This document shows, one piece after another, positions 1 through 58,991 of a DNA stretch of 64,000 bases. The position numbers were made by a program, and so were the translations under genes. This DNA is from Enterobacteria phage KhF3: the sequence record KT184315.1; one strand, 5' to 3'. Each line of letters starts with the position of its first letter. Within the stretch, counting starts at the first letter, position 1. The notes beneath the pieces are model-generated. The model saw only the letters and a program-made list of their open reading frames with translations. It did not search any database and was not told where the DNA came from.

Positions 1-394
1 CATTTTGTGAAAAAATGTATTCAAGTCTGTTTGTTTCTTTATTAACTGTCATTGGAGATTGAAATGCAGTATCGAGGGTAATGAAAGCGGCTTCAATGCT
101 ATTAACATTGATACGTTTATTCTCGCAGTTATATAACTTTACACCCAAAAGGCATGAGCTGTCAAATGGAATTTTAACAATTTCACTACAATTTCCTGAA
201 ATAAACGGTTTTCCACTCATTGGTGCATCAAGTAACCTGCAAATAGTGAAAACGTCAGAGACTCCACCATCACTAACATAACCTGAAAGGCTGACCCTTG
301 AGCCAGCCTCTACAGATAACTTGTCAGTAATGATAAGGACACCCCTATACGAATGCACTCGTGTAGCATTTGAAATAGAGATAACTTCAGCCAT
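1..394 (-). CDS. hypothetical protein, partial (runs off window start); possible head morphogenesis gene downstream of portal
   Basis: ATG at 392-394 overlaps the stop of the upstream ORF (TAATG); minus-strand frame stays open to position 1. Confidence 0.45.
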   Translation of the reverse strand, partial: MAEVISISNATRVHSYRGVLIITDKLSVEAGSRVSLSGYVSDGGVSDVFTICRLLDAPMSGKPFISGNCSEIVKIPFDSSCLLGVKLYNCENKRINVNSIEAAFITLDTAFQSPMTVNKETNRLEYIFSQN

Positions 395-1860
395 TATTTA
401 TTTGCCTTATTTGCTGTGCTTGGGTCTTTCGCTGAAGGTGTCTTTGCAGTACCTTCTCCAGCGGTCTTATAACCATCTCCTGAGCGGCTTTGGCTATTTG
501 GAGAAAGCTTTTCAGATACTGGCTGAGACTCATCAGCAGGAGGAAGACCAATATGCTCTCTAAGTTTGTTAGATAGCTCTTTGTCAACTTCCAAAGCACC
601 TACTGCAACAGTCTTCTGAATATAAGAACCAATTGCTTCAAGGTCTGGAGTTTCGATATCATCATATGTGATTTGTACATGTTCTTCATCATCCCACATA
701 TTAAGAGCATAAGTCTGTGCAACTAAATCACGGTTAATTACGTTCTTAATTTGCTTCAGCAGAATATCTACTGACATTGCTAGTAAACTCGTCTTAGAAT
801 CTGCAAGAGAGAATGAACCATATTTTGACTGACCCATAGCAAGAACATCTGACATAAATGCCATCATAATCTGCTTGGAATATCTGTCAATAATAGAACC
901 TGTATCGTATGCTTTAGCACCCTGTCTAGAAACTAATGAGAACTCAAAAATATCCTCTTTAGTATCTGGGTCGATATATCTAGGCCAGATTAAACCTGCT
1001 CTATCATTAGCAATCATATCGTTAACAACAGTTTTGCAGTATTGTACGAAAGCTTTCTTTTCAGGTTCTGCATTTTCATCTAGATAGTCTGGTGGTAAAC
1101 CAATCTTTGGCATACCTACTAAGTCTCTTGAAACGCCAACAGCCTCATACTCTTCAATCTGTACTTTATATTTCCACGGTACATAAGCATTAAGTAGTGG
1201 TGAACGACCTTCTGGATTTCCATATTCATCGTCATACTTAAACAGCATGAATTTAGCTCGTGGAAGTTTTCTTGTTAGAGGTCTTTCTCCAAGATTAATT
1301 GCTCCAGCAATATGTGAAACATTTCTCAGATTCTGTCTAACACCAGTAACTTTCCTAAAGTCTTCGTCAAAATACCACTTATCAAGTGTTGATTGGTTTC
1401 TGATTGGTAATTTAGCCCATCCAATTAGACCATCATCAAATTTAGACTGGTACTTTCCTTTTTTACCCTGACGTTTCTTATAAACCTTTTCGTTAACACA
1501 GAACCCATAAGTGCAGAATGACATTACAGAGTTAATAAAATCTGCCCAATCATGCTCCATGTCATCCATTAAAGAATTAAAGAAGTCTGCTCTTTCAAGC
1601 ATTTTAGGGTCTTGCTCTTTTCCCTTTGGAGGTACGAATCTCCAGTTGACTTTTCTGACAAACATCTTAATAATATTTACAGATGCTGCTACAGCAGGGT
1701 CACGCATCATTAATTGGAAAGTTTTAATACTTTCAGGGAACCTTAGTGCCTGACGAGGTTCTTCATAGATTCTTCCATTCTTAACCTTCAGACCCAAAGA
1801 ACCTACTTCACCCATTCTAAATGGTGGTAAGCTTTCTTGTGTTTCTGTAATATCTGCCAT
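394..1860 (-). CDS. putative portal protein
   Basis: About 490-aa ORF directly downstream of terminase large subunit, same strand; ATG 1858-1860 with AGGTGA RBS (track start 1869 is GTG); no diagnostic motif, assignment by position and size. Confidence 0.55.
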   Translation of the reverse strand: MADITETQESLPPFRMGEVGSLGLKVKNGRIYEEPRQALRFPESIKTFQLMMRDPAVAASVNIIKMFVRKVNWRFVPPKGKEQDPKMLERADFFNSLMDDMEHDWADFINSVMSFCTYGFCVNEKVYKKRQGKKGKYQSKFDDGLIGWAKLPIRNQSTLDKWYFDEDFRKVTGVRQNLRNVSHIAGAINLGERPLTRKLPRAKFMLFKYDDEYGNPEGRSPLLNAYVPWKYKVQIEEYEAVGVSRDLVGMPKIGLPPDYLDENAEPEKKAFVQYCKTVVNDMIANDRAGLIWPRYIDPDTKEDIFEFSLVSRQGAKAYDTGSIIDRYSKQIMMAFMSDVLAMGQSKYGSFSLADSKTSLLAMSVDILLKQIKNVINRDLVAQTYALNMWDDEEHVQITYDDIETPDLEAIGSYIQKTVAVGALEVDKELSNKLREHIGLPPADESQPVSEKLSPNSQSRSGDGYKTAGEGTAKTPSAKDPSTANKANK

Positions 1861-1876
1861 TCTTCTCACCTAGCTA

Positions 1877-3478
1877 TCAACGTCTAAGCCCCTCATACGG
1901 GTTTCCTCTCACTAAATCTGTGTGAGCACCCATTGATGGTGGCTTGAATAATTTAACTTCGTTAAGACTGTTGAAAGCATCACTGGTAGCATCCACTTGG
2001 TCATCTTTAGTTTTGCCGTCACCACAAAAACCTTCAAGTTCTTGAAAGTAAGCTTCATTCCAACTACCTCTCAAGACTTTTACAAGTCCAGCTTCAGAAG
2101 CAGCAGAAAATCCCGCAAAGCGGGTAACTTTATCTTTATTTGTTGGTTTGGCTCTTGCTCGATAACCTTTCTCGGCAAGTTTCCTGATTAGGGATGTTGC
2201 GTAGGATTTACCAGCAGCGCCTGGGTCTTGAGGGATAAAAATACCAGTTCGCTTACCGTCACTTTCAGCAGTCAAATTAATTTGTGTTTCGACTCCAGAG
2301 GGTCTATCTCTAAATCTTACTACATCAATGATATAATAGCAACCGTCTTTTTTAGATTTACCCATCTTAACACCTGCTGTCCAGTCTGGATTAGGGTTAA
2401 TCTCAGATGGTAAAGTTGCTGCTAAGTCCCATGCTCTAACATCGAATACATCTTCTGGGAGTGAATCAACAATCTCACACCATTGTCTTTGCCAATAGTT
2501 TGAACCTTCTGCACGAGCCTTCCAGTTACCGAAACGAAGTCTTGCAACGTTTACAGGGGTGTTGTTTTCCAACTTACCACGGTACTTAGGCTCTAAGAAG
2601 TCAAGGATTGGGTTATCATCAATCGTACCAGAGATGAATGTATATGTTTGAGGAATCTCAAGAGGAAACATTTCAAGAATCTTGTCTCTCTCCCAATCAG
2701 AAACCATAACACCATCATTCATTACATACCAACGAATACGACCACACTTTTCAGGGTCTGGGTAGCCTTCTTCATCTAAGAATGGTTCTACCCAATCGTA
2801 AATAAAGTGGTCTCTGTCTGGGTTCATAGAAATCTTCATGTATGAATCACCTTCAGCCCCAGAACGTAGACGAGTCTGTAGGTATGAAATCTGTGAAGCA
2901 GAGAAGTGTGTACCTTCGTCAAAGTAAATAGCTGAGTATTCAATACCCTGATGACCTTCAGCGTGCTTTTCAAGTTCTAGATAGGTAAACTTGATAGTTG
3001 CCCCAGAAGGGAATGTGATAGTCATCTTCTGCTCGTGAGGAACCCCACCAAACTTACCAAATAGTTTCTTTGCAGCAGGCCATAAACCACCTTGTAACTG
3101 TGTTGTATTTCGACGGAAATATACAGCATTATAGTTAGGGTCTTCAATAAACCTTAAAGAGTCCATTAACAATGCAGCAGTCTTACCAGCACCCGCAGCA
3201 CCACCATAGAGAACCAAGTCAGCATTAGTATTTAAAAAGACCTCTTGAGAACCCGGCTGAGGGGCTACATAGTTCTTATCAGTCATCAATTTGAAGATAA
3301 GTCTAACTTGGTCTGGTGTGTATCTTAATAAAGTCAGAATTTGAGTTGGAAGGAATTTAGAGGGGTCTTTACCGAATGATTTGATAATTTCTTTTACTTC
3401 ATCAGAAAGCCCCAACTCTCCAGCTAGGACTTTCCTAACATCTTCCACTCGCTTCTGCTTAACAGCATTTAAGTCCAT
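1877..3478 (-). CDS. terL: terminase large subunit
   Basis: Walker A-like GGAAGAGKT near N-terminus, size about 530 aa; ATG 3476-3478 with GGAGGTG RBS (track start 3493 is TTG). Confidence 0.8.
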   Translation of the reverse strand: MDLNAVKQKRVEDVRKVLAGELGLSDEVKEIIKSFGKDPSKFLPTQILTLLRYTPDQVRLIFKLMTDKNYVAPQPGSQEVFLNTNADLVLYGGAAGAGKTAALLMDSLRFIEDPNYNAVYFRRNTTQLQGGLWPAAKKLFGKFGGVPHEQKMTITFPSGATIKFTYLELEKHAEGHQGIEYSAIYFDEGTHFSASQISYLQTRLRSGAEGDSYMKISMNPDRDHFIYDWVEPFLDEEGYPDPEKCGRIRWYVMNDGVMVSDWERDKILEMFPLEIPQTYTFISGTIDDNPILDFLEPKYRGKLENNTPVNVARLRFGNWKARAEGSNYWQRQWCEIVDSLPEDVFDVRAWDLAATLPSEINPNPDWTAGVKMGKSKKDGCYYIIDVVRFRDRPSGVETQINLTAESDGKRTGIFIPQDPGAAGKSYATSLIRKLAEKGYRARAKPTNKDKVTRFAGFSAASEAGLVKVLRGSWNEAYFQELEGFCGDGKTKDDQVDATSDAFNSLNEVKLFKPPSMGAHTDLVRGNPYEGLRR

Positions 3479-3499
3479 TAAGCACCTCCGCAAATAGAA

Positions 3500-3700
3500 T
3501 TATTCAGAGTCTGTAGCAGTCTCTTCTTTCTTAACTTCGAACTTTGCATCAACAGCATCAAGAAGTGCATCCATAGATGCTTCTTTAATATCAATGCCTG
3601 TTGCTACAGATAATCTGTCTGCAATTGCCATGATAGTATTCTGCATAAATTCTAGCTTCTTGTTAGCTTCATAAAGTTCTTTATAAACGGTCTCGCTCAT
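3500..3700 (-). CDS. hypothetical small protein
   Basis: 66-aa ORF with GGAGAA RBS, upstream of terL. Confidence 0.4.
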   Translation of the reverse strand: MSETVYKELYEANKKLEFMQNTIMAIADRLSVATGIDIKEASMDALLDAVDAKFEVKKEETATDSE

Positions 3701-3736
3701 TATGTTTTCTCCAAATAATTAACCATGTTTCCCCTT

Positions 3737-3760
3737 AAAAAAGACGGCACAGAGACCGTC
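3737..3760 (-). terminator. rho-independent terminator-like hairpin
   Basis: Minus-sense GACGG-loop-CCGTC followed by T6. Confidence 0.5.
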
Positions 3761-3922
3761 AAGGAGAAACCACAATGTACGTCAGAGACATACTGTATAA
3801 GTCTTCTTATAAAGTATAGCTCTGTAAAAAAGCCCTGTCTAAAAATACTCTTCGGTAGCGAAAGGAAGAATACTTATAGCAGGGCATTATTATTATTTTA
3901 ATTGAGAGAGAGTAAAATAACT

Positions 3923-3998
3923 TGGAGAATCCGAAGGGACTCGAACCCTTATAAACCTGTTTTGCAGACAGGAACATAGCCATTTCTGTCACGGATTC
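3923..3998 (-). tRNA. tRNA-Cys (anticodon GCA)
   Basis: Manual cloverleaf on reverse complement: 7-bp acceptor, T-loop, anticodon loop CTGCAAA, CCA encoded. Confidence 0.7.
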
Positions 3999-4002
3999 AA
4001 AT

Positions 4003-4095
4003 TGGAGGAAGATACCAGACTTGAACTGGTACACCGATTTCTCAGCTACTGGCAGTTTAGCAAACTGCTCCCTTACCTTTTAGGGTTAATCTTCC
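4003..4095 (-). tRNA. tRNA-Ser (anticodon GCT), class II
   Basis: Acceptor GGAAGAT/ATCTTCC, anticodon stem GCAGT/ACTGC loop TTGCTAA, long variable arm. Confidence 0.7.
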
Positions 4096-4096
4096 A

Positions 4097-4831
4097 TTAT
4101 TTCTGTAATGCGTTCTTCATTTCTGGTGTTGCAATAGTGTCAATCACACCAGTTTTACAAGCATCATCAAACCAGTCTGGTAAGATACCTGCTAAGAACC
4201 CATTGATATTCGTTTTAAGGTACTCTGCAATAAGAGCAGCTTCTTCTTCAATCATCTGCACAACTTCATCTGCATAAGCTGTAATCTTCGAAATACCTTC
4301 ATTAATCTTACTAACAGCTTGGTTAGCTAAATCAGAAATAGTATCAAGACCTTTGTCAATAGCATCTTGTAAGTCACTTAATACATCATTAACGACATCT
4401 AGTGCACTGTTAATTGTGTCAATAGCTTTTTGACCATATTCTGTAGCAACGCCCATAATACCACTAAACGGTGTACAGCCAACTTGTTCCCCTGCTGCAC
4501 CCATAACATTGGAATACCCCTTTGCTACCTGCATACGTGATGAAAACTCATCAATAGACTTTTGACCATAGTCTGTTAAGGTCTTAGTAGTCGCTGTAGT
4601 GCTTGTAAGGCTTGTTGTAAAGCTGTTTAGAAGGACTGTTGTAAGTCCAGCAGCAACAAGTTTCTCCTTCATTGTAGGGTCTGTTACAGAGCTAATAGAA
4701 CTTACAAGTGATGTAGAGGCAGCTACGGTTCCACCGAGAACTGCTGCACCAGTAATAAGGGGATTAGAAAACCCTCTACCGGTTTTTAAGAGATTAAAAA
4801 TCTCCTTACCTTGTTCTGTCATCTCTTTCAT
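4097..4831 (-). CDS. hypothetical Ser/Thr-rich protein
   Basis: Track ORF 4097..4894 uses GTG inside tRNA-Phe; in-frame ATG at 4829-4831 with AAAGGTG RBS avoids the overlap. Confidence 0.5.
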   Translation of the reverse strand: MKEMTEQGKEIFNLLKTGRGFSNPLITGAAVLGGTVAASTSLVSSISSVTDPTMKEKLVAAGLTTVLLNSFTTSLTSTTATTKTLTDYGQKSIDEFSSRMQVAKGYSNVMGAAGEQVGCTPFSGIMGVATEYGQKAIDTINSALDVVNDVLSDLQDAIDKGLDTISDLANQAVSKINEGISKITAYADEVVQMIEEEAALIAEYLKTNINGFLAGILPDWFDDACKTGVIDTIATPEMKNALQK

Positions 4832-4847
4832 TAAGCACCTTTGTAAT

Positions 4848-4924
4848 TGGTAGTCCAGTGGGATTTGAACCCTCTTCTCATGTTTTTCAGACACGCGCTT
4901 TAACCATATAAGCTACTTGGACTA
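4848..4924 (-). tRNA. tRNA-Phe (anticodon GAA)
   Basis: Acceptor TAGTCCA/TGGACTA, anticodon loop CTGAAAA; D-arm imperfect. Confidence 0.6.
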
Positions 4925-4929
4925 TAAAT

Positions 4930-5005
4930 TGGGGTGACCTACGGGATTTGAACCCGTATAGACCATGTTCACAGCATGGGTCATTACCATTTATGATAAG
5001 GCCAC
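4930..5005 (-). tRNA. tRNA-His (anticodon GTG)
   Basis: Anticodon stem CCATG/CATGG loop CTGTGAA; CCA encoded. Confidence 0.7.
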
Positions 5006-5036
5006 ATTTAAGGACTCTCGTAAGAATCCTTAGAAG

Positions 5037-5112
5037 TGGCAGCGGCATAAGGATTTGAACCTTAATAGGACAGCTTCAGAGACTGTTGCATTGCCAGTTA
5101 TGCTATACCGCT
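5037..5112 (-). tRNA. tRNA-Gln (anticodon CTG)
   Basis: Full cloverleaf, anticodon loop CTCTGAA. Confidence 0.7.
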
Positions 5113-5117
5113 AAATT

Positions 5118-5196
5118 TGGTACTCCATATCGGATTCGAACCGATACATAACACAGATTTTAAGTCTGGCCTCTCTGCCAATTGGAGTAATGGAGC
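5118..5196 (-). tRNA. tRNA with anticodon TAA (Leu by anticodon), short variable arm
   Basis: Acceptor GCTCCAT/ATGGAGT, T-arm ATCGG-TTCGAAT-CCGAT, anticodon loop CTTAAAA, discriminator A, 76 nt without CCA. Confidence 0.55.
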
Positions 5197-5198
5197 AT

Positions 5199-5274
5199 TG
5201 GCGGGGGATGTTGGAATTGAACCAACTTCTTCGATTTCAAAGACCGAGGTTTTAACCTTGTAAACTAATCCCCT
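5199..5274 (-). tRNA. tRNA-Gln (anticodon TTG)
   Basis: Anticodon stem TCGGT/ATCGA loop CTTTGAA; position 1-72 mismatch. Confidence 0.7.
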
Positions 5275-5282
5275 TTAAATCT

Positions 5283-5840
5283 TTACTTTCTCAGTGGATG
5301 AATAAAGAATGCCAACATAACTCTTTCCCTTGAGAATGCTCTTTCTTCTGGGACAACACTTTTTAGTTTCCATCCAATATAAATTCTCCAGTAAAACTGT
5401 TTACCAAAGACTTTAATTGATGGGATAAAGGCGAATAATCCCCAAGCATTACTGTTCCACATTAGGAGATAACCAGTCTGATTATCTTCAGGGTCAGAAC
5501 TTACGTTGATATTACCTTTCCACTTAGTAACATCTTTTACATCTCTTCCTAATACATGGTAAGAGAAGTTATAAGCTTTGTTTCTCCAGAGCCATCCGAC
5601 TCTTTGCATGTAGACGCCTAGTTTACCAATCCATCTAATATTAGCCCATCTTTTAACGTGACCTTCATCACCATCAATTGGGTTGTCATATGTCTCCATC
5701 CATCTGAACCCGAAAGGTAAGTGTCCTTTCTTCTCACTGTAGAATGGAACTACAAAAGGTGCTAAGATAACTGCTAAGATTGCTGCAAATGGTTCTAACA
5801 AAGCTAAGAAAATCCATGAAGCATACTTTAAGTATCTCAT
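5283..5840 (-). CDS. hypothetical membrane protein
   Basis: 185-aa ORF with hydrophobic N-terminus, between tRNA blocks. Confidence 0.5.
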   Translation of the reverse strand: MRYLKYASWIFLALLEPFAAILAVILAPFVVPFYSEKKGHLPFGFRWMETYDNPIDGDEGHVKRWANIRWIGKLGVYMQRVGWLWRNKAYNFSYHVLGRDVKDVTKWKGNINVSSDPEDNQTGYLLMWNSNAWGLFAFIPSIKVFGKQFYWRIYIGWKLKSVVPEERAFSRERVMLAFFIHPLRK

Positions 5841-6079
5841 TGTCTAATCCTCGTAAGGAGGTAAATGTTATTATTCGTTTCTAAACCTTCTGGTAAAACT
5901 ATCTCAAAAATAACACTCTTCAGATGTCTACCACCAAAACAATCACGTATAAATCTTTCTACTCTAGCGGGGTCACATAAGTATCCCACTTTTAAGAAAA
6001 TGTGGTGTTCAACACCAATGACCCTGACAAACTCAATACTCTCACAGTTTTCATGTTCAACTACTGTTAATGTTTGCAT
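5837..6079 (-). CDS. hypothetical protein
   Basis: 80-aa ORF, stop overlaps downstream start. Confidence 0.4.
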   Translation of the reverse strand: MQTLTVVEHENCESIEFVRVIGVEHHIFLKVGYLCDPARVERFIRDCFGGRHLKSVIFEIVLPEGLETNNNIYLLTRIRQ

Positions 6080-6096
6080 AGTATCACCTTTTTATC

Positions 6097-6172
6097 TGGC
6101 GCAGGATAAGGGATTCGAACCCCTATTAACAGCTTCGTAGACTGTTGCTCTTTCCATTTGAACTAATCCTGC
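6097..6172 (-). tRNA. tRNA-Arg (anticodon ACG)
   Basis: Anticodon stem ACAGT/GCTGT loop CTACGAA. Confidence 0.7.
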
Positions 6173-6177
6173 AAAAT

Positions 6178-6255
6178 TGGTGTTCCAAGACGGATTCGAA
6201 CCGTCACTAATACAAGGTTTGAGCTTGCATCCTCTGCCAATTGGGATACTGGAAC
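6178..6255 (-). tRNA. tRNA with anticodon CAA (Leu by anticodon), short variable arm
   Basis: Acceptor GTTCCAG/TTGGAAC, anticodon stem GCAAG/CTTGT loop CTCAAAC, T-arm GACGG-TTCGAAT-CCGTC, discriminator A. Confidence 0.55.
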
Positions 6256-6256
6256 A

Positions 6257-6331
6257 TGGTACTCACTAAAGGACTTGAACCTTTTTCTTCATCTTGTAAG
6301 GGTGATGTTTTACCATATAAACTAAGCGAGT
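6257..6331 (-). tRNA. tRNA-Val (anticodon TAC)
   Basis: Anticodon loop CTTACAA, D-stem GTTT/AAAC, discriminator A. Confidence 0.65.
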
Positions 6332-6427
6332 ATGAAAGAGGTCTGGAGTTGTGCCGCTAACTCAACTCCGTGGAATTTGTTACGGTCTTCAGTTGACTCA
6401 AAGCGGTCTTTCACTTGACCTCTGAAT
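6332..6427 (-). other. structured spacer element (not a canonical tRNA)
   Basis: No T-loop; ends pair GAGGTC/GACCTC; internal 7-bp hairpin GGAGTTG/CAACTCC; contains GAAGACCGT motif shared with other spacers. Confidence 0.3.
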
Positions 6428-19073: not shown

Positions 19074-19100
19074 AGCCTCCTTAATTGGGGGCTTTTTATT
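19074..19100 (+). terminator. rho-independent terminator ending plus block
   Basis: AGCCTCC-TTAATT-GGGGGCT followed by TTTTATT. Confidence 0.7.
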
Positions 19101-20676
19101 GAGTAAAATTTACGAAATTTATATTTTTTATAAAATTTTATCGGTTGTTCCAACCTCTGGGTCACCATCATATGTGAACAAAATATCTATCCTTCTTAAC
19201 AGCCTTCTTAATCTTATTCTCTATATAGTTATATAGTACTATATAGTATCTTAGTAACTATCTAGTGGTCTTAATAGCCCTCTGTATAGCCCTTCTAAAT
19301 AGCCCTCTAAACACTCTTCTAACAAGCCTTCTTAACAACCTATACAATCACCTTAACCATCTCTCTACACTCTCTTAGAAGCTCCTATACACCTCTTAAT
19401 CTCTATGTCAGCTATGATACTCTCTATAGGTGTTCACTAGGTGCTACTAAGCCTCTATATAGACTGTTTTAACAAACTTAACAGGAATATCTTTACAGAC
19501 CTTATCTCACAAGGTCTAACACGGTACTAACAAGGTATCTTATAAGCCTGTTATTACCTGTATTTTAGAAAGACTGTATAGGTAATTATTCAGATTTTTA
19601 AAATTTTTATAAAATAGGACTATCAAGTCATTTTTTAGGGTCTTTGAAGGAACTGAAAAATATCTGTAGAAGATGTATATCTGCTTGGTAGCCCTTAACA
19701 TCCCTGTAACATCCCCTTTGCAAAATTTTAAAATATCCTTAACAATCTCTTAACAGTTCTCACATCTTCTTAATAACTCTTCAAAGTTCTTAACAGATTC
19801 TTAACAGAACTAACAAGGGCTTAACAGTTTTCTAACAAGTGCTGAATAGACTTTACAGAATCTTAACAGATTCCTAACAAGAGCTCAGTAGTTAAATGTT
19901 AAGAGTTATTTTGTTAAGATAATTAACAAGTTTCTAACAAGTGTTTAATCTTTTTAACAAGCTATTAACATGGTCACTACTCTTTTCTTATCGTTCCCTT
20001 TCCTTTCTTAGTGATTCCTTAAACATACCTCTTAAAAGCTCTGTATAGCTCTGTATAACCCCTTTTAAGCCTCTTCCTAGTAATTACACCCCAACTATAC
20101 AGATACCTCTTTATAGGGCTTTACAGGGGCTTTAAAGGCTATGTCAAAGGTTCTTACAAGGCTTTTACGTGGTTTTAACAGAGATTTAACAAGGGGCTAA
20201 CAAGTCTCTAACAAGTGCCTTAAAAGCATAACTATGTAGGGATTGTTAAGAAATTGTTAAGAAAATGTTAAGGGGGCTAGCATTTACGTAACTTTTAAGC
20301 AACTTTGAAGTAACTTTATAACCCCTATAACATACTTTTCAGTTACTATCAAGGGGCTTGTTTAGTAGTTCACAAGATAGCTAACGAGATAATAAAACTT
20401 ACACCCTTATAAGATTCTTTTAAGGTTCTAGGAAGCTTTATAAAGGGCTTTTTAGAGCAGGTTAATATGATTGCTTAAGTTAGGTTGATAAGGCTGTTAT
20501 AGAGCTTTATAGAGCGTTTTAGTGGTTGCCCTTCCCTTTCGGGTTATGGGCTTATATTTAAGTTGATTTGATAAGAAGATATAGAGTAGACTATAGAGTT
20601 ATTGCTTTTAAGGTCTGGTAAGATTCTAACTTGTTAGGGGAGTCTGGGAAGATTCTGGGAAGGGATTGGATAGACG
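19101..20676. repeat. 1.6-kb non-coding region dense in short direct repeats (YTAACAR, CTATAGAG families)
   Basis: No ORF over 60 aa; more than 20 copies of CTTAACAG / CTAACAAG / TTAACAAG-like octamers; lies between convergent terminators. Confidence 0.7.
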
Positions 20677-20989: not shown

Positions 20990-21054
20990 AATTTAGATTC
21001 TCCAGTTTAGGACTTTACTTAGTGGGGGGAGGTCATCCCCCGTTAATTAGTAAT

Positions 21055-21318: not shown

Positions 21319-21407
21319 CTTGATAACTCCAGTTTAGGACTTTATTTAGTGGGGAAGGTCATTCCCTCCCCGTTGATTGACAATTTACAGATTTTTATCA
21401 GGCTTGT

Positions 21408-22876: not shown

Positions 22877-22978
22877 TTTTAGAATCTCCAGTTTAGGACT
22901 TTATTTAGTGGGGAAGGTCATTCCCTCCCCGTTGATGTGTAATTTAATCTATCTAAAAACCAGTGTCAACAAAATTTT
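22877..22978 (-). promoter_or_regulatory. early-gene cassette type B: promoter, leader hairpin, RBS
   Basis: Minus-sense TTGACA (22964-22969), 17 nt, TAAATT (22941-22946); 8-bp GC hairpin GGGGAGGG/CCTTCCCC in the leader; GGAGA RBS; about 5 copies. Confidence 0.6.
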
Positions 22979-23741: not shown

Positions 23742-23830
23742 TTTCAGAATCTCCAGTTTAGGACTTTATTTAGTGGGGAAGGTCATTCCCTCCCCGTTGA
23801 TGTGTAATTTAGCCTATCTAAAAATCAGTG

Positions 23831-26392: not shown

Positions 26393-26455
26393 TTTTGAAT
26401 CTCCAGTTTAGGATTTTATTTAGTGGGGAAGGTCATTCCCTCCCCGTTGATGTAA

Positions 26456-26484: not shown

Positions 26485-26660
26485 TAAAAATTTTAAAAAT
26501 ATTTTTGGCAAAACTGTAATGAAACGGGTGCGCACGACTACCACAAAACAGAACGCAAATCAAGAATTATTTTTCAATCCGCTACAAATTTTTCTATTGA
26601 CTTTTGGGGAGAGGGGGAGTAAGAGGGGGAGAGGTGTTGGGCTGGCTGTCTATAAAAACC

Positions 26661-26839
26661 TACCTGCACAATTCTAAAATGATTTTTCTTGCCCGACCTG
26701 AGCGGAGTCTGCACGTTTTGAAAATGAAAAAGCTCTTTGGAGATTACCTGCACAGTTTGAAAATGAATTTTCTCTTTGGAGTTCAAAATTCTCTCTACAG
26801 ATTTCTCTACAGAACTCTACCTGCACAATTCTGAAATGA
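26661..26839. repeat. four direct repeats CTGCACARTTYTRAAATGA in non-coding region
   Basis: Copies near 26664, 26710, 26748, 26821; adjacent G-rich tract GGGGAGAGGGGGAGTAAGAGGGGGAGAGG at 26606-26634. Confidence 0.65.
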
Positions 26840-26912
26840 AAAAGCCCTCCTTACCTGAAAAATTTACCAGATAAGAAAGGCTTAGGCTATTGTGAATATC
26901 CTACAGAGTTTC

Positions 26913-27698
26913 TTAGTTCTTTGCGTCTAAGAAGGTAACTTCTGGTGAAGAGAAGATTGCCTCGATATCCTCATCAGTTCTTGCATAGATATAAGCTTCT
27001 GCATCACTACCAAATGTTACAGCAATTCTGTGATTGCTCTTTGACAGGTGGGTAACTAGAGCGTTACTTAGAGACATCTTTTCAACCGGAGGGTTACTTT
27101 GATGTATCTTACCTTTTCTTCGTCTGAAGAGGGTAACTGCATTATCCGTGAACACAACTACACCTGCAAAGTATTCTGGTTCACAGTAGTTCTCCCAACC
27201 TGAGCGTAACTTGTGGTACATCTCTCCTTCATAGACATATAGATAAACATCTACACTCTTCATCACCTGATTAATGATAACTGTGACGGCTTGAGGGTCT
27301 AGCCCACCGATACCTGCACCAATCATAGGTAACCCGACTTTCTTCAACTGATTGACTTCACAGTATCTGTTAAGCTGTTTCAAAGATGACTCTAAAGCAC
27401 TGTATCGGGCATCTTTACCAGTCTTAAGCTGAGTGTAAAGGTTAGCTATACGACCTTGTTTTAAACGTGCTACAGAGAAATTACCCAGTAAATTTTCACA
27501 GGGTTTGTGTCCTATACCACCTGCATATAGATAAACTTCTGTATCGGTCTCATATGCTTTTGGGTAAAGTTTAGAAATCTTGTCAGCGATACCTGCACCC
27601 ATTAAATTCATACAGTTGCAACCGTGACCGATGATGTCAAACTTACCTTTATCAAATGCGGCAAAGATATCACCATTGATTATTTTTACAATACCCAT
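26913..27698 (-). CDS. macro domain-containing protein (ADP-ribose binding or hydrolase)
   Basis: N-terminal GDIFAAF ... IGHGCNCMNLMGAGIADKI matches the macro-domain glycine-rich signature. Confidence 0.6.
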   Translation of the reverse strand: MGIVKIINGDIFAAFDKGKFDIIGHGCNCMNLMGAGIADKISKLYPKAYETDTEVYLYAGGIGHKPCENLLGNFSVARLKQGRIANLYTQLKTGKDARYSALESSLKQLNRYCEVNQLKKVGLPMIGAGIGGLDPQAVTVIINQVMKSVDVYLYVYEGEMYHKLRSGWENYCEPEYFAGVVVFTDNAVTLFRRRKGKIHQSNPPVEKMSLSNALVTHLSKSNHRIAVTFGSDAEAYIYARTDEDIEAIFSSPEVTFLDAKN

Positions 27699-27899
27699 TT
27701 AACATCTCTCCCAAGATTCTTTATCTTCTGAAGGTTTTACACGTTGCCCCTCATGGTCTACCCAGATACATCCACAACCTTCACAGATTACTGGCATTGC
27801 ATAACCAGCTTTAAAGTCATCTTCAGTGATAAGACCTTTTAAGTCACCTGTATCACGTCCAAACATTTCTATAGAACAGTCTTTGCAGAAGTCAGCCAT
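27699..27899 (-). CDS. zinc-ribbon small protein
   Basis: CxxC ... CxGC Cys pairs in 66 aa. Confidence 0.45.
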   Translation of the reverse strand: MADFCKDCSIEMFGRDTGDLKGLITEDDFKAGYAMPVICEGCGCIWVDHEGQRVKPSEDKESWERC

Positions 27900-56034: not shown

Positions 56035-56208
56035 GTAAGCCTCTTTTAAGTAGCTATTAAGTTTTAATCTTTTATCTTAACGTATTCTATACGTTATACT
56101 TTAAAGCTTTTTAAAAGCTATTAAATAATCTTTTAAGAGTTTTAAAGTATCTGTATAGTTAAACTGTTAAGTAACCTTTTAAGTAAAAACCCACTTCGCA
56201 AAGATTAA

Positions 56209-56232: not shown

Positions 56233-56291
56233 TTGCTTTTTATAATTTTTTGCAGTAATGTATGAGGTTAATGATTTTAGAGGGAGTAAAA

Positions 56292-58991
56292 ATGGAAAAC
56301 ATAGATTTTAAAAACTTACATTTAGTTGGTGATACAGAAACTGATGGTTTACTCCTTGAGTTCACTAAAGTGCACGTAATGGCTTTCGCAGACTATAAAT
56401 CTGACGATGAAGAGCCACCTGTATGGGTCTTTACAGATGAGCCTATCCTCGGTCACAAATACACCAAGTACATCAAAGGCGGTTTACGTGAAGGTATTGA
56501 GTTTGCGTTAAAGGCAAAACGACTTTGCATCCATAATGGTCTGGGTTATGACTGGTGGGTTTTCAATCACATTGCACCTGATTTGTGGAACTTTGATAAT
56601 CCAAAGTGTAAACCGTGGAGTAATTTCTTTCAGGATTCTCTTATCCAGTCTCGTGTTCAGTGGATGGATAGACCAACCCCAAAAGGTTATAAGGGTGCTC
56701 ATGGCTTGGCTGCATGGGGTGCTCGTGTTGGTGTTCGTAAGCCAGAGATTGAGCATTGGGGTGTTTGGAATGCAGAAATCTTCACTCGTGTTGTAGAAGA
56801 TATCCGTATTAACGCCAAAACTAAACGTGCACTGGATAATGAATATCTCAAGCTGAAGAAGTGTGGCGTAGATACTTATGAAACCTACATGCGAGCTAAA
56901 GAAACATCTTTCTGGATGAGTCAACAAGCTATCAATGGTTGGAAAGCTGATAAGGAGCTTATGGAGTTCCATGTAAAGGAGCTTGACAAGTTGACTAATG
57001 AGCTTGCTTCAGAAGTTGAACCACACCTTCCACCAACTATTAAGACCAAAGGTAAAGTCACTGGAGAAGAATTTGCAAAAGCTTGGAATGAGTATGTTGA
57101 AGCATTCGGTCATGCAGATGGACTGAAGAGGATTACCAAGTACCCTAAGACAAAGTATCGTCAGCAGGTACGTAATGGTGAGATGCAGACATATGAAATC
57201 AAGCCATTTGGTAAGCCAACTACAAAGATTTTTAACATTGAAAAGAGAAATTGCTATACACCAACCAACTCTGTAACTGGTGAAGAGTACAAGGAAGGCT
57301 TTGTAGCAATGAAGGATGCTCGTGCAATTTGCAATGAGTTGAATGCAAAGATTGGTAAGAAATGCAAAGACTGGAAGCCAGTAAAAACAGTCAAAACTGT
57401 GAAGTACTATAACAGCCACGTTGTTAACCACTTTGAACTTGAGTCAAGTCGCTACACAGGTTTGATTGATGCACCATATACACCAATTGAGTTTGAAGTT
57501 TCTCGTATGACTCAGGTAGCAGTTGTTAAAGACTACTTGAAATCAGTTGGTTGGATTCCAGATGACTGGAACTACAAGAAAGACTCAGATGGTCGCCCTG
57601 TCAAAGTTTGTCGTTTCAAAGACAATAAAAAGATGATTACAAAGCATCCTAAGTGGCAGGAAATGGTTGAGCGGTGTGGTTTGAGTTATGTTGAACATGA
57701 AGGTGTACAGTACATCGAGCATAACTGGTCTGTGAAGAAATACACAGATTTGCTTGAGCCTTGCTTAATCCGTACTTCACCAAAACTTACTGAATCATCT
57801 TATGATACGATTGAAGGTGAGCTTGGACAGAAGATTGCTAAGTACTATACTTTGATGCACCGACGCAGAACTATTGAGAACTCAAAGGATGATGAAAAAG
57901 GTTGGTTGAACCAGATTCGTCCTGATGGTCGCCTTAGTGCTGGCGCAATGGTGTTTGGTACTTCAACTGGACGTATGACACAATATGGTATTGTAAACGT
58001 ACCGTCTGGTGCTGCTGTCTATGGGGAACCAATGAGGGCAGTGTGGATTTGTGAGGAAGGTACTAACGTTGTCTCTGTAGATATGAACTCAGCCCAGCTA
58101 GTTCTTCTTTGTAACTTTATGGGTGATAAAGAGTTCACCAAAGCGGTAACGCAAGGTAAAGAAGAGATTGAGTTTATTCGTCAAGAAGATGGACGCTATT
58201 ACTGCAAACATTTTGATGAGTACCTCAACCCAGAGATTGATAAGTACCTTCGCTATGACTCTGAGAATGACCTGTACGTTGTCTATTCAGGGACTGATGC
58301 ACATACACTGAACAGTATTTACTTTAGCTTGAATGATGAGCAGGACATCTTGACTTGTCGAGCTACTCAGGATGAGAATCTTCTTCATGAGATTAGTAAA
58401 GGTCGTAAGAAAGCTAAGAATGGTATCTATGCACTGCTGTTTGGTGCAGGGGATGAGAAGTTTGCTAAGACGATTAAAGCTGCAACTACTCAGGAAGGTG
58501 CACTGACTAAACAAACTTACTTTATACGTTTGCCTAAAATTAAGAAGCTGTTAGATGACTTGGAAGCTGACTACAAAGCGACTAAAAAGGCACTTGAAGA
58601 GGTGTTTGGTAAGACTGCTGCAATCTCTAAAGGGGGTTTTGTAAAGGTTGCTGGAGCTTGGTTGTGGTGTAAATCTCCACACAAACTGTTGAACTACCTT
58701 TTGATGGGTTCAGAGGCCCAGATTCAAAATGAGGCAATTAACCTTGCTTGTCGTCGCATGATTGACGAAGGGTTGATGAAGCTAAATGGGCGTAAACCAG
58801 CTATAGGTGCTCGCTTATTGTGCGCATATCACGATGAGACTAGCTGGGAATGTCCAGAGAGTATGACGGCAGAAGTAAAAGCAGTTACTGATTGGTATTA
58901 CGGGCAAGCTTCTAAGAACTTAGGTCTTAAGAAAGAAACACTTGTAACTGGTACAGGTAAGGTTGGAAAGAGTTGGCTTGAGGTTCACTGA
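56292..58991 (+). CDS. DNA polymerase, family A, with 3-prime to 5-prime exonuclease domain
   Basis: Exo motif DTETDG at N-terminus, polymerase motif C YHDE near C-terminus; ATG 56292 with AGGGAG RBS (track start 56262 lacks RBS). Confidence 0.85.
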   Translation: MENIDFKNLHLVGDTETDGLLLEFTKVHVMAFADYKSDDEEPPVWVFTDEPILGHKYTKYIKGGLREGIEFALKAKRLCIHNGLGYDWWVFNHIAPDLWNFDNPKCKPWSNFFQDSLIQSRVQWMDRPTPKGYKGAHGLAAWGARVGVRKPEIEHWGVWNAEIFTRVVEDIRINAKTKRALDNEYLKLKKCGVDTYETYMRAKETSFWMSQQAINGWKADKELMEFHVKELDKLTNELASEVEPHLPPTIKTKGKVTGEEFAKAWNEYVEAFGHADGLKRITKYPKTKYRQQVRNGEMQTYEIKPFGKPTTKIFNIEKRNCYTPTNSVTGEEYKEGFVAMKDARAICNELNAKIGKKCKDWKPVKTVKTVKYYNSHVVNHFELESSRYTGLIDAPYTPIEFEVSRMTQVAVVKDYLKSVGWIPDDWNYKKDSDGRPVKVCRFKDNKKMITKHPKWQEMVERCGLSYVEHEGVQYIEHNWSVKKYTDLLEPCLIRTSPKLTESSYDTIEGELGQKIAKYYTLMHRRRTIENSKDDEKGWLNQIRPDGRLSAGAMVFGTSTGRMTQYGIVNVPSGAAVYGEPMRAVWICEEGTNVVSVDMNSAQLVLLCNFMGDKEFTKAVTQGKEEIEFIRQEDGRYYCKHFDEYLNPEIDKYLRYDSENDLYVVYSGTDAHTLNSIYFSLNDEQDILTCRATQDENLLHEISKGRKKAKNGIYALLFGAGDEKFAKTIKAATTQEGALTKQTYFIRLPKIKKLLDDLEADYKATKKALEEVFGKTAAISKGGFVKVAGAWLWCKSPHKLLNYLLMGSEAQIQNEAINLACRRMIDEGLMKLNGRKPAIGARLLCAYHDETSWECPESMTAEVKAVTDWYYGQASKNLGLKKETLVTGTGKVGKSWLEVH

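Follow-up and report, generated by a model that had tools for sequence, protein, structure and literature searches.

The stretch analysed here (the window) comprises 64,000 nucleotides of Enterobacteria phage KhF3, a Felixounavirus genome with 99.6% identity to phage XTG1. In the untranslated DNA between its Macro-domain gene and the first early promoter lie four copies of a bipartite direct repeat, found at this locus only and kept in place throughout the four Ounavirinae genera and in an unclassified relative. From the sequence and its conservation we tentatively propose that the array may be a previously undescribed set of DNA sites that bind a protein and serve as a boundary or a regulatory element, a reading that we hold to be possible, short of probable.

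The preliminary description of this region, made from the letters alone, had reported one motif occurring four times at roughly 40-80-bp spacing. A pattern scan of the window confirmed the four repeats at 26664-26682, 26709-26727, 26748-26766 and 26821-26839, all on the plus strand, with start-to-start distances of 45, 39 and 73 bp. The repeats are thus real, but the degenerate consensus first given for them is exact in just two copies, with 0, 3, 1 and 0 mismatches in the order above; its chance expectation is 0.27, and its sole further match in the 64 kb has 3 mismatches and is unrelated. A better core, TGCAC-N7-AAATGA on the plus strand or TCATTT-N7-GTGCA on the gene-sense minus strand, is exact in 4 of 4 copies. 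When the motif was searched for elsewhere, as had been suggested, this core occurred four times genome-wide, always within the array and in a single orientation, compared with 0.1 in shuffled sequences. Its 11 positions are invariant in all units of five lineages and form two blocks with an A/T-rich 7-bp spacer between them, and in relatives the repeated unit is longer than 19 nt, at about 37-45 nt. Numbered in gene-sense order on the minus strand, unit 1 (26821-26839, the fourth copy of the preliminary description) reads TCATTTCAGAATTGTGCAG and overlaps the T-tail of the macro gene's intrinsic terminator. Unit 2 (26748-26766) reads TCATTTTCAAACTGTGCAG after ACTCCAAAGAG, unit 3 (26709-26727) reads TCATTTTCAAAACGTGCAG after TCTCCAAAGAGC, and unit 4 (26664-26682) reads TCATTTTAGAATTGTGCAG after GGTCGGGCAAGAAAAA. 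The last of these is closest to the units of Erwinia phages, and a BLAST match to phiEa21-4 spans 26665-26767. The 73-bp spacer holds two neighbouring 12-bp direct repeats (26792-26815, minus; TCTCTACAGATT and TCTCTACAGAAC on the plus strand), in which TCTG.A.AG is invariant across genera in the alignment columns. Inverted repeats found at the array were short and imperfect only.

Both flanking features named at the outset were recovered, and all genes around the array lie on the minus strand. The Macro-domain gene (26913-27698, minus; from the ORF list, with matches to Pfam PF01661 Macro at E=1e-7 and to PHROG 335 'phosphatase') is the final gene of the rIIA...macro transcription unit, and the array lies downstream of it. 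An intrinsic terminator hairpin for the macro operon (26842-26883, minus), annotated as such in XTG1 and ASO1A, consists of a 17-pair stem with a TTTCATTTCA tail; its T-tail (26832-26841) extends into repeat unit 1, and the plus-strand side is without a T-run. At the other end stands the first early promoter, a sigma-70 promoter of the form TTGACT-17-TAATAT (26484-26456, minus), found by consensus scan and annotated as a promoter in ASO1A, together with an A/T-rich UP-like element (26485-26512, minus) and a 57-nt 5'UTR cassette (26397-26453, minus) made up of a GGGGAGGGAATGACCTTCCCC hairpin and a Shine-Dalgarno sequence. The cassette is common to several early-block genes, with 98% identical copies at 22882-22938, 23747-23803 and 21327-21377. 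The repeat motif is absent from the other early promoters, at least four of which have the cassette, so the array cannot control the early block as its general switch.

The most conserved block of the intergenic DNA (26556-26603), defined by invariant columns of the intergenic alignment, reads AAAAGTCAAnAGAAAAATTTGTAGCGGATTGAAAAATAATTCTTGAYT on the minus strand and contains two back-to-back, divergent -35-like hexamers. Two candidate promoters were noted here. One, TTGACT-17-TAAGAG (26597-26625, plus), was read from the sequence and would point towards the repeats; its -10 is weak, with the final T missing, and the consensus scan did not flag it, and in relatives with an alternative segment it becomes TTGACT-17 (ending TGG)-TAGCCT, a better promoter. 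The other, TTGATT-17-TAGTCG (26535-26563, minus), would face the early genes; its -35 and the TA of its -10 are kept across genera, and its final base is G. The sites of the array are centred 145-300 bp upstream of the nearest candidate promoter, which is far for a classical activator or repressor, and we counted this distance against the proposed protein-binding role.

The G-rich tract GGGGAGAGGGGGAGTAAGAGGGGGAGAGG is present exactly as first reported, at 26606-26634. It is a homopurine/homopyrimidine tract (28 of 29 purines) containing a perfect 12-3-12 mirror repeat of the H-DNA type (26608-26634; GGAGAGGGGGAG-TAA-GAGGGGGAGAGG), the sole mirror repeat with arms of at least 11 nt in the 64 kb. 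On the gene-sense RNA it has 26 C (65%) and 1 G per 40 nt, the top C-over-G minus-sense window in the 64 kb, and it is the best rut-like segment on the transcribed strand there, which we counted in favour of a boundary or regulatory element. There is no canonical G-quadruplex (four G-runs of at least 3, loops of 1-7 nt) at the tract in the window; a long-loop motif at 26606-26641 has a third loop of 9 nt and a broken fourth G-run, and a fourth GGGG run is present in most relatives. Not all relatives have the tract: in a subset of Felixounaviruses an unrelated segment takes its place, so this part of the proposed boundary would be dispensable.

The arrangement is conserved across genera. After the macro-domain gene, Felixouna-, Susp-, Moogle- and Kolesnikviruses share the order terminator, four units, C-rich tract and early promoter, and the unit number is likewise kept in these genera, with three units in some Si3-like Felixounaviruses. 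Spacing is lineage-specific yet stable (73/39/45, 75-77/39-41/45 or 37/37/39 bp), being 75/41/45 bp in Moogleviruses and 37/37/39 bp in Erwinia phages. The intergenic DNA is 71-82% identical to that of Susp- and Moogleviruses, compared with 72-75% for the adjacent macro gene, and this similar level of identity implies that the non-coding DNA is under purifying selection. Conserved position, 11 invariant core positions and a single locus and orientation together support the earlier suggestion that these are functional cis-acting repeats and not chance occurrences. Absence of the motif from this position in related phages, which the preliminary description had named as refuting, is clearly contradicted. 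Searches through 185,579 species genomes and JGI metagenomes returned just unrelated tandem repeats, toxIN loci and further Ounavirinae. The repeats are not mentioned in the papers on Felix O1, wV8 and UAB_Phi87, in the PhageMaP study of the Felixounavirus Bas63 or in the Danish coliphage survey, and a search of the literature on Felix-O1-like phages found no expression or binding reports.

Small early genes fill a terminal block of about 6 kb, and the array stands at its inner edge. The direct terminal repeat (DTR), and hence the physical genome end, is at 19687-20277, where the exact 592-bp terminal duplication of ECP2307 maps, and position 19687 is the start or end of 3 database records. 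In UAB_Phi87 a 608-bp DTR has been mapped experimentally (PMC4837284) and agrees with the SpeI map of that phage (4322 + 2819 - 608 = 6533 bp vs 6568 bp observed; PMC4837284), which places the genome ends 5-7 kb away from the array. In KhF3 the array is separated from the terminal repeat by 6.3 kb and lies 6.9-7.2 kb inside the mapped end, or about 8% of a genome of 87-90 kb. The array had itself come under suspicion as a genome end because several IMG/VR contigs and the record TH10 stop within the region, and the position of the DTR rules it out as physical end, terminal repeat or packaging site. Two contigs (L004 and L005) stop at the identical base in the C tract, and L005 continues into Nextera adaptor; such breaks likely reflect assembly trouble, either from near-identical co-occurring strains or at the G-rich tract.

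We also considered whether the repeats act as protein, as RNA or as sites for familiar regulators. A 76-aa plus-strand ORF and a 70-aa minus-strand ORF span the repeats, and the 39- and 45-bp spacings keep frame in the window. In relatives every frame is disrupted, by spacings of 41, 37 and 43 bp and, in wV8, by a deletion of 2 nt, which rules out a protein-coding function. RNAalifold, run on 10 sequences and both strands, gave the terminator hairpin only, and an Rfam search of the region returned nothing even at E<=10. With no conserved RNA helix on either strand of the array and no conserved reading frame, a role at the level of DNA is favoured. Tandem sigma-70 promoters were rejected on either strand, as -10-like hexamers are present and their -35 partners are poor and unconserved. 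Compared by eye with consensus sequences, none of the sites for DnaA, IHF, CRP, Fur, NtrC, LexA or sigma-54 fits all four units. A formal scan for DnaA boxes (TTWTNCACA) found no perfect box and two one-mismatch matches, both outside the units; Erwinia-phage units read CTATGCACA, an 8/9 match to the box. A CRISPR-like mini-array or RNA anti-CRISPR was rejected on the lack of any CRISPR-DR family match within the array and on the conservation of the 'spacers' among phages. BLAST of the array against plasmids and E. coli genomes gave no matches. Among 19 neighbouring proteins, Pfam and PHROG searches revealed no Rep-, O-, DnaA-like or helix-turn-helix family match; the lack of a helix-turn-helix or initiator match among these neighbours, all of unknown function, was counted against the protein-site proposal.

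We hypothesize that the four repeats are double-stranded DNA recognition sites for one sequence-specific protein, which would most likely be phage-encoded because the flanks of the motif differ between phage lineages. Each site would be bipartite and about 23 bp long (gene-sense W4-5 TCATTTY-N6-YGTGCA-KR), with all four facing the same direction; a single locus and one orientation are typical of protein-binding site arrays. The sites would belong to an untranslated control region of about 430 bp with four parts, namely the intrinsic terminator closing the rIIA...macro operon, the four sites, the homopyrimidine, rut-like, H-DNA-type tract, and the very conserved block that bears the back-to-back -35 hexamers and closely precedes the first early promoter. 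Protein on the four sites could then form a nucleoprotein boundary that, together with the terminator and the C-rich tract, would shield the terminal 6-kb early block from transcription arriving from the remaining genome and would also modulate the adjacent promoters. The location of the array between terminator and promoters was counted in favour of this proposal.

The preliminary description had compared the repeats with iterons or regulator binding sites. A phage initiator that bound the four repeats and opened nearby A/T-rich DNA, as at lambda ori or at plasmid iterons, would account for four same-orientation repeats at one locus only. A conserved non-coding region whose promoters on both sides could activate an origin is consistent with this, as is the presence, within 60-180 bp, of an A/T-rich UP element and of a 48-bp block with an A+T content of about 75%. 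The iteron comparison was not supported, and we consider an origin unlikely: spacing is irregular, at 45/39/73 bp in the window and 37/37/39 bp in Erwinia phages, and does not keep helical phase, the DNA bordering the units is G+C-rich and not an unwinding element, and no Rep- or O-like or other initiator-like gene lies nearby. The best intergenic 100-bp window is unremarkable in helical stability, at about the 3rd percentile of the window, and the least stable DNA is found at 19.1-19.9 kb and 56.05-56.15 kb, the latter among replication genes; no DnaA box is perfect and none falls inside the units. The position of the array raises a different explanation, in which the terminal ~7 kb enters the cell first and expresses the small early genes. 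Entry would then pause or stop at the array, to which the H-DNA-type tract might contribute, as it does at the injection stop signal (iss) of T5. In T5 the first-step-transfer segment is 7.9% of the genome, and iss lies in untranslated, repeat-rich DNA that, unlike the genes on its flanks, is conserved (bioRxiv 10.1101/866236). The array is comparable in its distance of about 8% from the genome end and in its conserved untranslated repeats. The array of Sf17 is likewise 6.7-7.0 kb from the genome end; the genes in the intervening segment are small, have no known function and are served by strong sigma-70 promoters of their own, and in the distant relative L055 the units immediately adjoin a TTAACA-repeat region resembling the terminal repeat. 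We nevertheless regard an entry pause of this kind as distinctly unlikely, since no report describes two-step DNA transfer for any Felix-O1-like phage, the array lies outside a terminal repeat of just about 0.6 kb, T5-type inverted repeats, palindromes and DnaA boxes are lacking at the array, and the 8% coincidence may be chance. The early-block proteins, all of at most 180 aa, include nothing annotated as T5 A1 or A2; every PHROG match among them is to a family of unknown function, and there is no above-threshold Pfam match. That the array and the mirror-repeat tract together make up the stop or pause signal of two-step entry is very unlikely. If true, it would represent a second, independently evolved first-step-transfer strategy of the T5 kind, with a cis signal much simpler than that of T5 and genetically dissectable.

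Two further explanations concern the transcribed strand and the origin of the units. On the plus strand, a promoter-like element at 26597, the repeats and the 26842-83 hairpin follow in the order expected of a non-coding RNA, which might serve as a protein sponge or anti-defence decoy such as a pseudo-ToxI mimic. Erwinia phages and Moogleviruses have true tandem units of 37-45 nt, a length within the range seen in type III antitoxins (PMC5086642). Escape from ToxIN by means of such repeats is known for a phage (PMC3475682), plasmids of E. coli and Salmonella commonly carry ToxN genes, and the toxI units of two Lachnospiraceae toxIN loci contain TGCAC-N7-AAATGA, a match that is largely built into the search pattern. 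Such an RNA is very improbable in our view, because no conserved fold, covariation or Rfam match was found, the plus-strand -10 in the window lacks its key final T and the hairpin has no U-tract on that strand. Unit lengths in the window are unequal (39/45/73 bp) and the inter-core sequences differ. In Erwinia phages unit lengths are nearly constant (37/37/39), and no plus-strand promoter is evident upstream of the array, plus-strand scan matches falling inside units or outside the region. Membership among ToxI-type antitoxin mimics was rejected on the comparison with eight enterobacterial toxI arrays, which the units do not resemble, and on the negative Rfam and BLAST searches. The units might instead be relics of tandem duplication of the 3' half and tail of the terminator (GGGCTTTTTCATTT...), kept without a function of their own, or else weak tandem elements that resemble promoters or cause sigma-dependent pausing. 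The terminator tail runs directly into unit 1, units 1 and 3 in gene-sense order share GCTTTTTCATTT with the terminator, and each unit has a plus-strand -10-like hexamer (TAAAAT, GAAAAT or TGAAAT). Neutral relics would decay, however, and the 11 positions are invariant in five lineages whose proteins are just 64-70% identical; -35 partners are poor (at most 3/6) except in Erwinia phages, and the minus-strand TAnnnT pattern is unconserved. We judge both possibilities highly improbable.

Felix-O1-like phages are workhorses of Salmonella typing, biocontrol and therapy, and hardly any work has addressed how they regulate their genes, where their replication starts or how their DNA enters the cell; according to the Felix O1 genome paper, temporal control was unknown (PMC3185647). 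At the inner edge of their terminal early block, no conserved non-coding feature is more conspicuous than the element described here. It offers a small, defined target of four 19-bp cores and, should it prove to be a boundary, origin or entry signal, a direct handle on the start of infection. For annotators there is a caution: several GenBank records have ORFs called across this region, and these are probably spurious.

Compared with known systems, the array resembles iterons (lambda ori, P1, R6K, pSC101) in having same-orientation direct repeats of about 19-23 bp at one conserved non-coding locus with promoters near. It differs from them in spacing, which is about 22 bp in iterons and an irregular 37-77 bp here, and in being without an adjoining A/T-rich unwinding element, DnaA or IHF sites and a recognisable initiator gene. 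With ToxI, AntiQ, CptI and pseudo-ToxI it shares a few units of 37-45 nt between a promoter-like element and a hairpin in a virulent enterobacterial phage, and in Erwinia phages the likeness extends to strictly tandem units; it departs from them in the lack of sequence or covariance-model similarity and of a pseudoknot, in its unequal units and in a weak promoter and terminator on the required strand. The neighbouring tract, judged by its sequence, resembles H-DNA mirror repeats, G4 motifs and rut sites in its 12-3-12 homopurine symmetry and C-rich RNA; four G-runs occur in most relatives, and the KhF3 tract is without a canonical G4. Like the T5 iss, the array is an untranslated repeat region whose element order is kept among relatives, about 8% from a physical end and bordering, on its inner side, a terminal block of small early genes. 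The T5 region lies inside a 10-kb terminal repeat, consists mainly of inverted repeats and palindromes, has paired DnaA boxes and acts together with the A1 and A2 proteins, whereas the KhF3 array has direct repeats only, no DnaA boxes and a 0.6-kb terminal repeat 6.3 kb away. We know of no comparable four-repeat boundary array described for SPO1 or T5. The host-takeover module of the Bacillus phage SPO1 and the T5 pre-early region are terminal clusters of many small genes, every one equipped with a strong host-type promoter and a ribosome-binding site, and both modules lie within long terminal repeats. What the early block of KhF3 shares with them is this plan of a terminal cluster of small genes bounded by non-coding control DNA.

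The four direct repeats of the preliminary description were borne out at 26664-82, 26709-27, 26748-66 and 26821-39, against 0.27 matches expected by chance. All four units carry, in a single orientation, an exact invariant core, TGCAC-N7-AAATGA on the + strand (TCATTT-N7-GTGCA in gene sense). A search for the motif elsewhere in the genome, as had been proposed, showed the core to be confined to the array; it recurred neither in the remainder of the 64-kb window nor in positions 1-45000 of Enterobacteria phage XTG1, which stood in for the part of the genome beyond the window. By BLAST against phage records, 26000-27700 is 99.6% identical to XTG1 and matches 226 records, nearly all Felix-O1-like (Ounavirinae, Felixounavirus). 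The surrounding genes are on the minus strand, and in gene-sense order a macro-domain gene (26913-27698; Pfam Macro E=1e-7) is followed by an intrinsic terminator (stem 26883-26842, tail TTTCATTTCA; also annotated in XTG1 and ASO1A), the four repeats, a C-rich tract (26606-26634) and a sigma-70 promoter found by consensus scan (TTGACT-17-TAATAT, 26484-26456). Just upstream of the macro gene, 27699-27899 (minus strand) encodes a 66-aa zinc-ribbon-like protein (CxxC...CxxCxC; PHROG 2210, unknown function), with cross-genus DNA identity of 77-89% versus 72-75% for the macro gene.

With the intergenic DNA alone as query, BLAST matched 288 phage records, with identities of 86% in Suspvirus, ~75% in Mooglevirus and 73% in Kolesnikvirus (Erwinia phages), the last match spanning exactly 26665-26767, or units 4 to 2. 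Inspection of 29 IMG/VR relatives and three GenBank phages placed the array at the same position across all four genera. The order of terminator, four units, C-rich tract, very conserved block and promoter was kept in almost all relatives, the exceptions being two Si3-like Felixounaviruses with three units and four IMG/VR contigs that break off within the region. Unit spacing is lineage-specific and stable inside each lineage (73/39/45 bp in Felixouna- and Suspvirus, 75-77/39-41/45 in Mooglevirus, 37/37/39 in Kolesnikvirus). The latter two genera repeat the entire 37-45-nt unit (ACTCCAAAGRG-WWWWT-TCATTTTCAA-NNY-GTGCAGRT), and TTCATTT and GTGCA scarcely vary over 87 distinct unit sequences. Aligned globally with Susp- and Moogleviruses, the intergenic DNA is 71-82% identical, comparable to the adjacent macro gene (72-75%; the protein is only 64-70% identical); it therefore evolves as a coding sequence would, despite being non-coding. 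Five related units, in two clusters directly downstream of a shorter macro gene, were found in the 88,375-bp viral contig IMGVR_UViG_3300045988_063805 (L055; positions 1-6366, with a Dam-like methylase and a 148-aa macro protein). This contig represents an unclassified phage lineage; none of 50,697 GenBank phage records is closely related to it, its sole match being the macro gene to T4-like tk.4. Scans of viral contigs, 185,579 species genomes and JGI metagenomes revealed the array in no further lineage. The whole region is also present in GU169904 ('Staphylococcus phage SA1', 147 kb) at 127899-129586, with 92.6% identity to an E. coli Felixounavirus; probably this assembly is mixed or carries the wrong label.

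The G-rich tract, the + strand reading of the C-rich tract, was present at 26606-26634 exactly as first written. It forms a homopurine mirror repeat without mismatches, GGAGAGGGGGAG-TAA-GAGGGGGAGAGG, and no second mirror repeat with arms of at least 11 nt occurs in the 64 kb. With a third loop of 9 nt, it falls short of a canonical G-quadruplex motif in this window; in the transcribed-strand reading the tract is the window's most C-over-G-biased 40 nt (26 C, 1 G). The tract is not universal, as two alternative alleles occupy the interval between unit 4 and the conserved block (window 26604-26660). The C-rich allele is found in this window and in Susp-, Moogle- and Kolesnikvirus, while about a dozen Felixounaviruses (e.g. 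phiWec174) instead have an unrelated ~60-bp segment, GGTGGGTGCAGGTGGGGATGTCGCCATTTCTCACAAGGCTACCACATCTGG, which contributes GTGCAGGT for a fifth time together with an improved + strand promoter (loci L007, L009, L011, L013, L014, L016-L020, L024, L029 and L034, at ~4040-4110 of each). Two IMG/VR contigs (L004, L005) stop at an identical base within the C-rich tract, one running on into Nextera adaptor (CTGTCTCTTATACACATCT), and a third (L012, 3990-4198) is joined after unit 3 to unrelated DNA that is G+C-rich and looks bacterial; all three resemble assembly artefacts in a stretch that strains share and that is difficult to sequence.

Conservation is highest over the 48 bp at 26556-26603, which contain two back-to-back -35-like hexamers belonging to candidate promoters directed toward the early genes (TTGATT-17-TAGTCG) and toward the repeats (TTGACT-17-TAAGAG). 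In this window neither -10 element ends in the customary T, and neither is called by the consensus scan; relatives with the alternative segment have a better repeat-facing candidate, TTGACT-17(TGG)-TAGCCT. We treat this pair as leads, not findings. Beyond the sigma-70 promoter is a 57-nt 5'UTR cassette (26397-26453, minus strand; the 'early array' of the preliminary description), made up of a hairpin, GGGGAGGGAATGACCTTCCCC, and a Shine-Dalgarno sequence. Copies with 98% identity recur ahead of several other small early genes (22882-22938, 23747-23803, 21327-21377, 20999-21027), and the first gene past the array varies by phage (62-aa, 127-aa or 73-aa product). This combination suggests cassette shuffling through recombination at the 5'UTR repeats.

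Clustered contig ends had suggested a physical genome end at the array, which is wrong, as the terminal repeat maps to 19687-20277. The ECP2307 record begins and ends with an identical 592-bp repeat, which maps there, and three records begin or end exactly at 19687, placing the array 6.9-7.2 kb inside one genome end, or ~8% of 87-90 kb. A 608-bp direct terminal repeat was mapped in the Felixounavirus UAB_Phi87 using Bal31 and SpeI (Bardina et al., PMC4837284), and the agreement of its 6568-bp SpeI fragment with the 6533 bp predicted places the genome ends 5-7 kb from the array. The Mooglevirus Sf17 record has a 427-bp terminal duplication, with the array 6.7-7.0 kb from the end. In this window the 6.2 kb lying between array and genome end holds a block of small genes, all of unknown function, transcribed toward that end. 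The terminal repeat is dense in TTAACA/TGTTAA (12 + 5 copies in 591 bp), with none in the array region, and L055 has eight TTAACA copies immediately past its units; these motifs may serve in packaging or in recognition of the end.

Two ORFs, of 76 aa (+ strand) and 70 aa (minus strand), run across the array, and a protein-coding array was ruled out by relatives' spacings of 37, 41 and 43 bp, which break the frames. 'Hypothetical protein' genes annotated over the array (JN225449 22010-22325, Phi87_49 and Phi87_50; EU877232, wV8 gene 13; other records) are probably spurious because their frames are not conserved between genera. An Rfam search of the array returned nothing even at E<=10, and RNAalifold found no conserved helix on either strand except the terminator; we consider a decoy RNA made from the + strand quite improbable. 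A ToxI-type antitoxin was ruled out, as eight enterobacterial toxI arrays are unlike the phage units, and the array had no BLAST match in plasmids or 5,426 E. coli genomes. The motif scan did return two true toxIN systems in Lachnospiraceae MAGs (Pfam ToxN E=5e-50, 3e-47; L077 6583-7200 and L082 520-1145; also L119, L136, L148, L151 and L174), complete type III loci with promoter, two 37-nt toxI repeats (AGGTGATGCACAGCCTTTAAATGAGCGAGTTATAAGT), terminator and toxN, which surfaced only because the toxI unit holds TGCAC-N7-AAATGA. Long arrays of 21-nt tandem repeats, TCATTT-N7-GTGCA-NNN, with a period-21 excess, were seen in many unrelated bacterial MAGs of several phyla (L079, L080, L084, L086, L090, L091, L093, L098, L100, L101, L131, L133, L150, L162, L172, L188).

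Every unit also has a + strand -10-like hexamer (TAAAAT, GAAAAT or TGAAAT), and tandem sigma-70 promoters are not credible given poor -35 partners outside Erwinia phages. The preliminary description had likened the regular repeats to iterons or regulator binding sites. The main rival reading is an iteron origin, which we judge unlikely, several of its defining features being absent. A scan of the window ruled out a set of DnaA boxes, and the array does not adjoin exceptionally unstable DNA; the least stable DNA lies at 19.1-19.9 kb and 56.05-56.15 kb. More promising than the array as an unwinding element or origin are 19100-19690, non-coding and just outside the terminal repeat, and 56050-56150, a divergent intergenic region adjoining a 909-aa ORF (56262-58991) among replication genes.

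The best fit to these sequence data is an array of putative protein-binding sites on DNA, given the bipartite motif with its A/T-rich spacer, the restriction to one locus and one orientation, the conserved sequence and number, and the lack of RNA or coding signal. Our tentative preference is for a nucleoprotein element with a boundary or regulatory role, which would work together with the terminator and the rut-like C-rich tract, keep the rII-macro operon separate from the terminal early block and tune the adjacent promoters. No description of the repeats was found in the literature searched; the element is genuine, is conserved and has gone undescribed. The array's place ~8% from the end, beside a takeover-like gene block, is reminiscent of the injection stop region of T5 (bioRxiv 10.1101/866236), but the parallel is one of position only.
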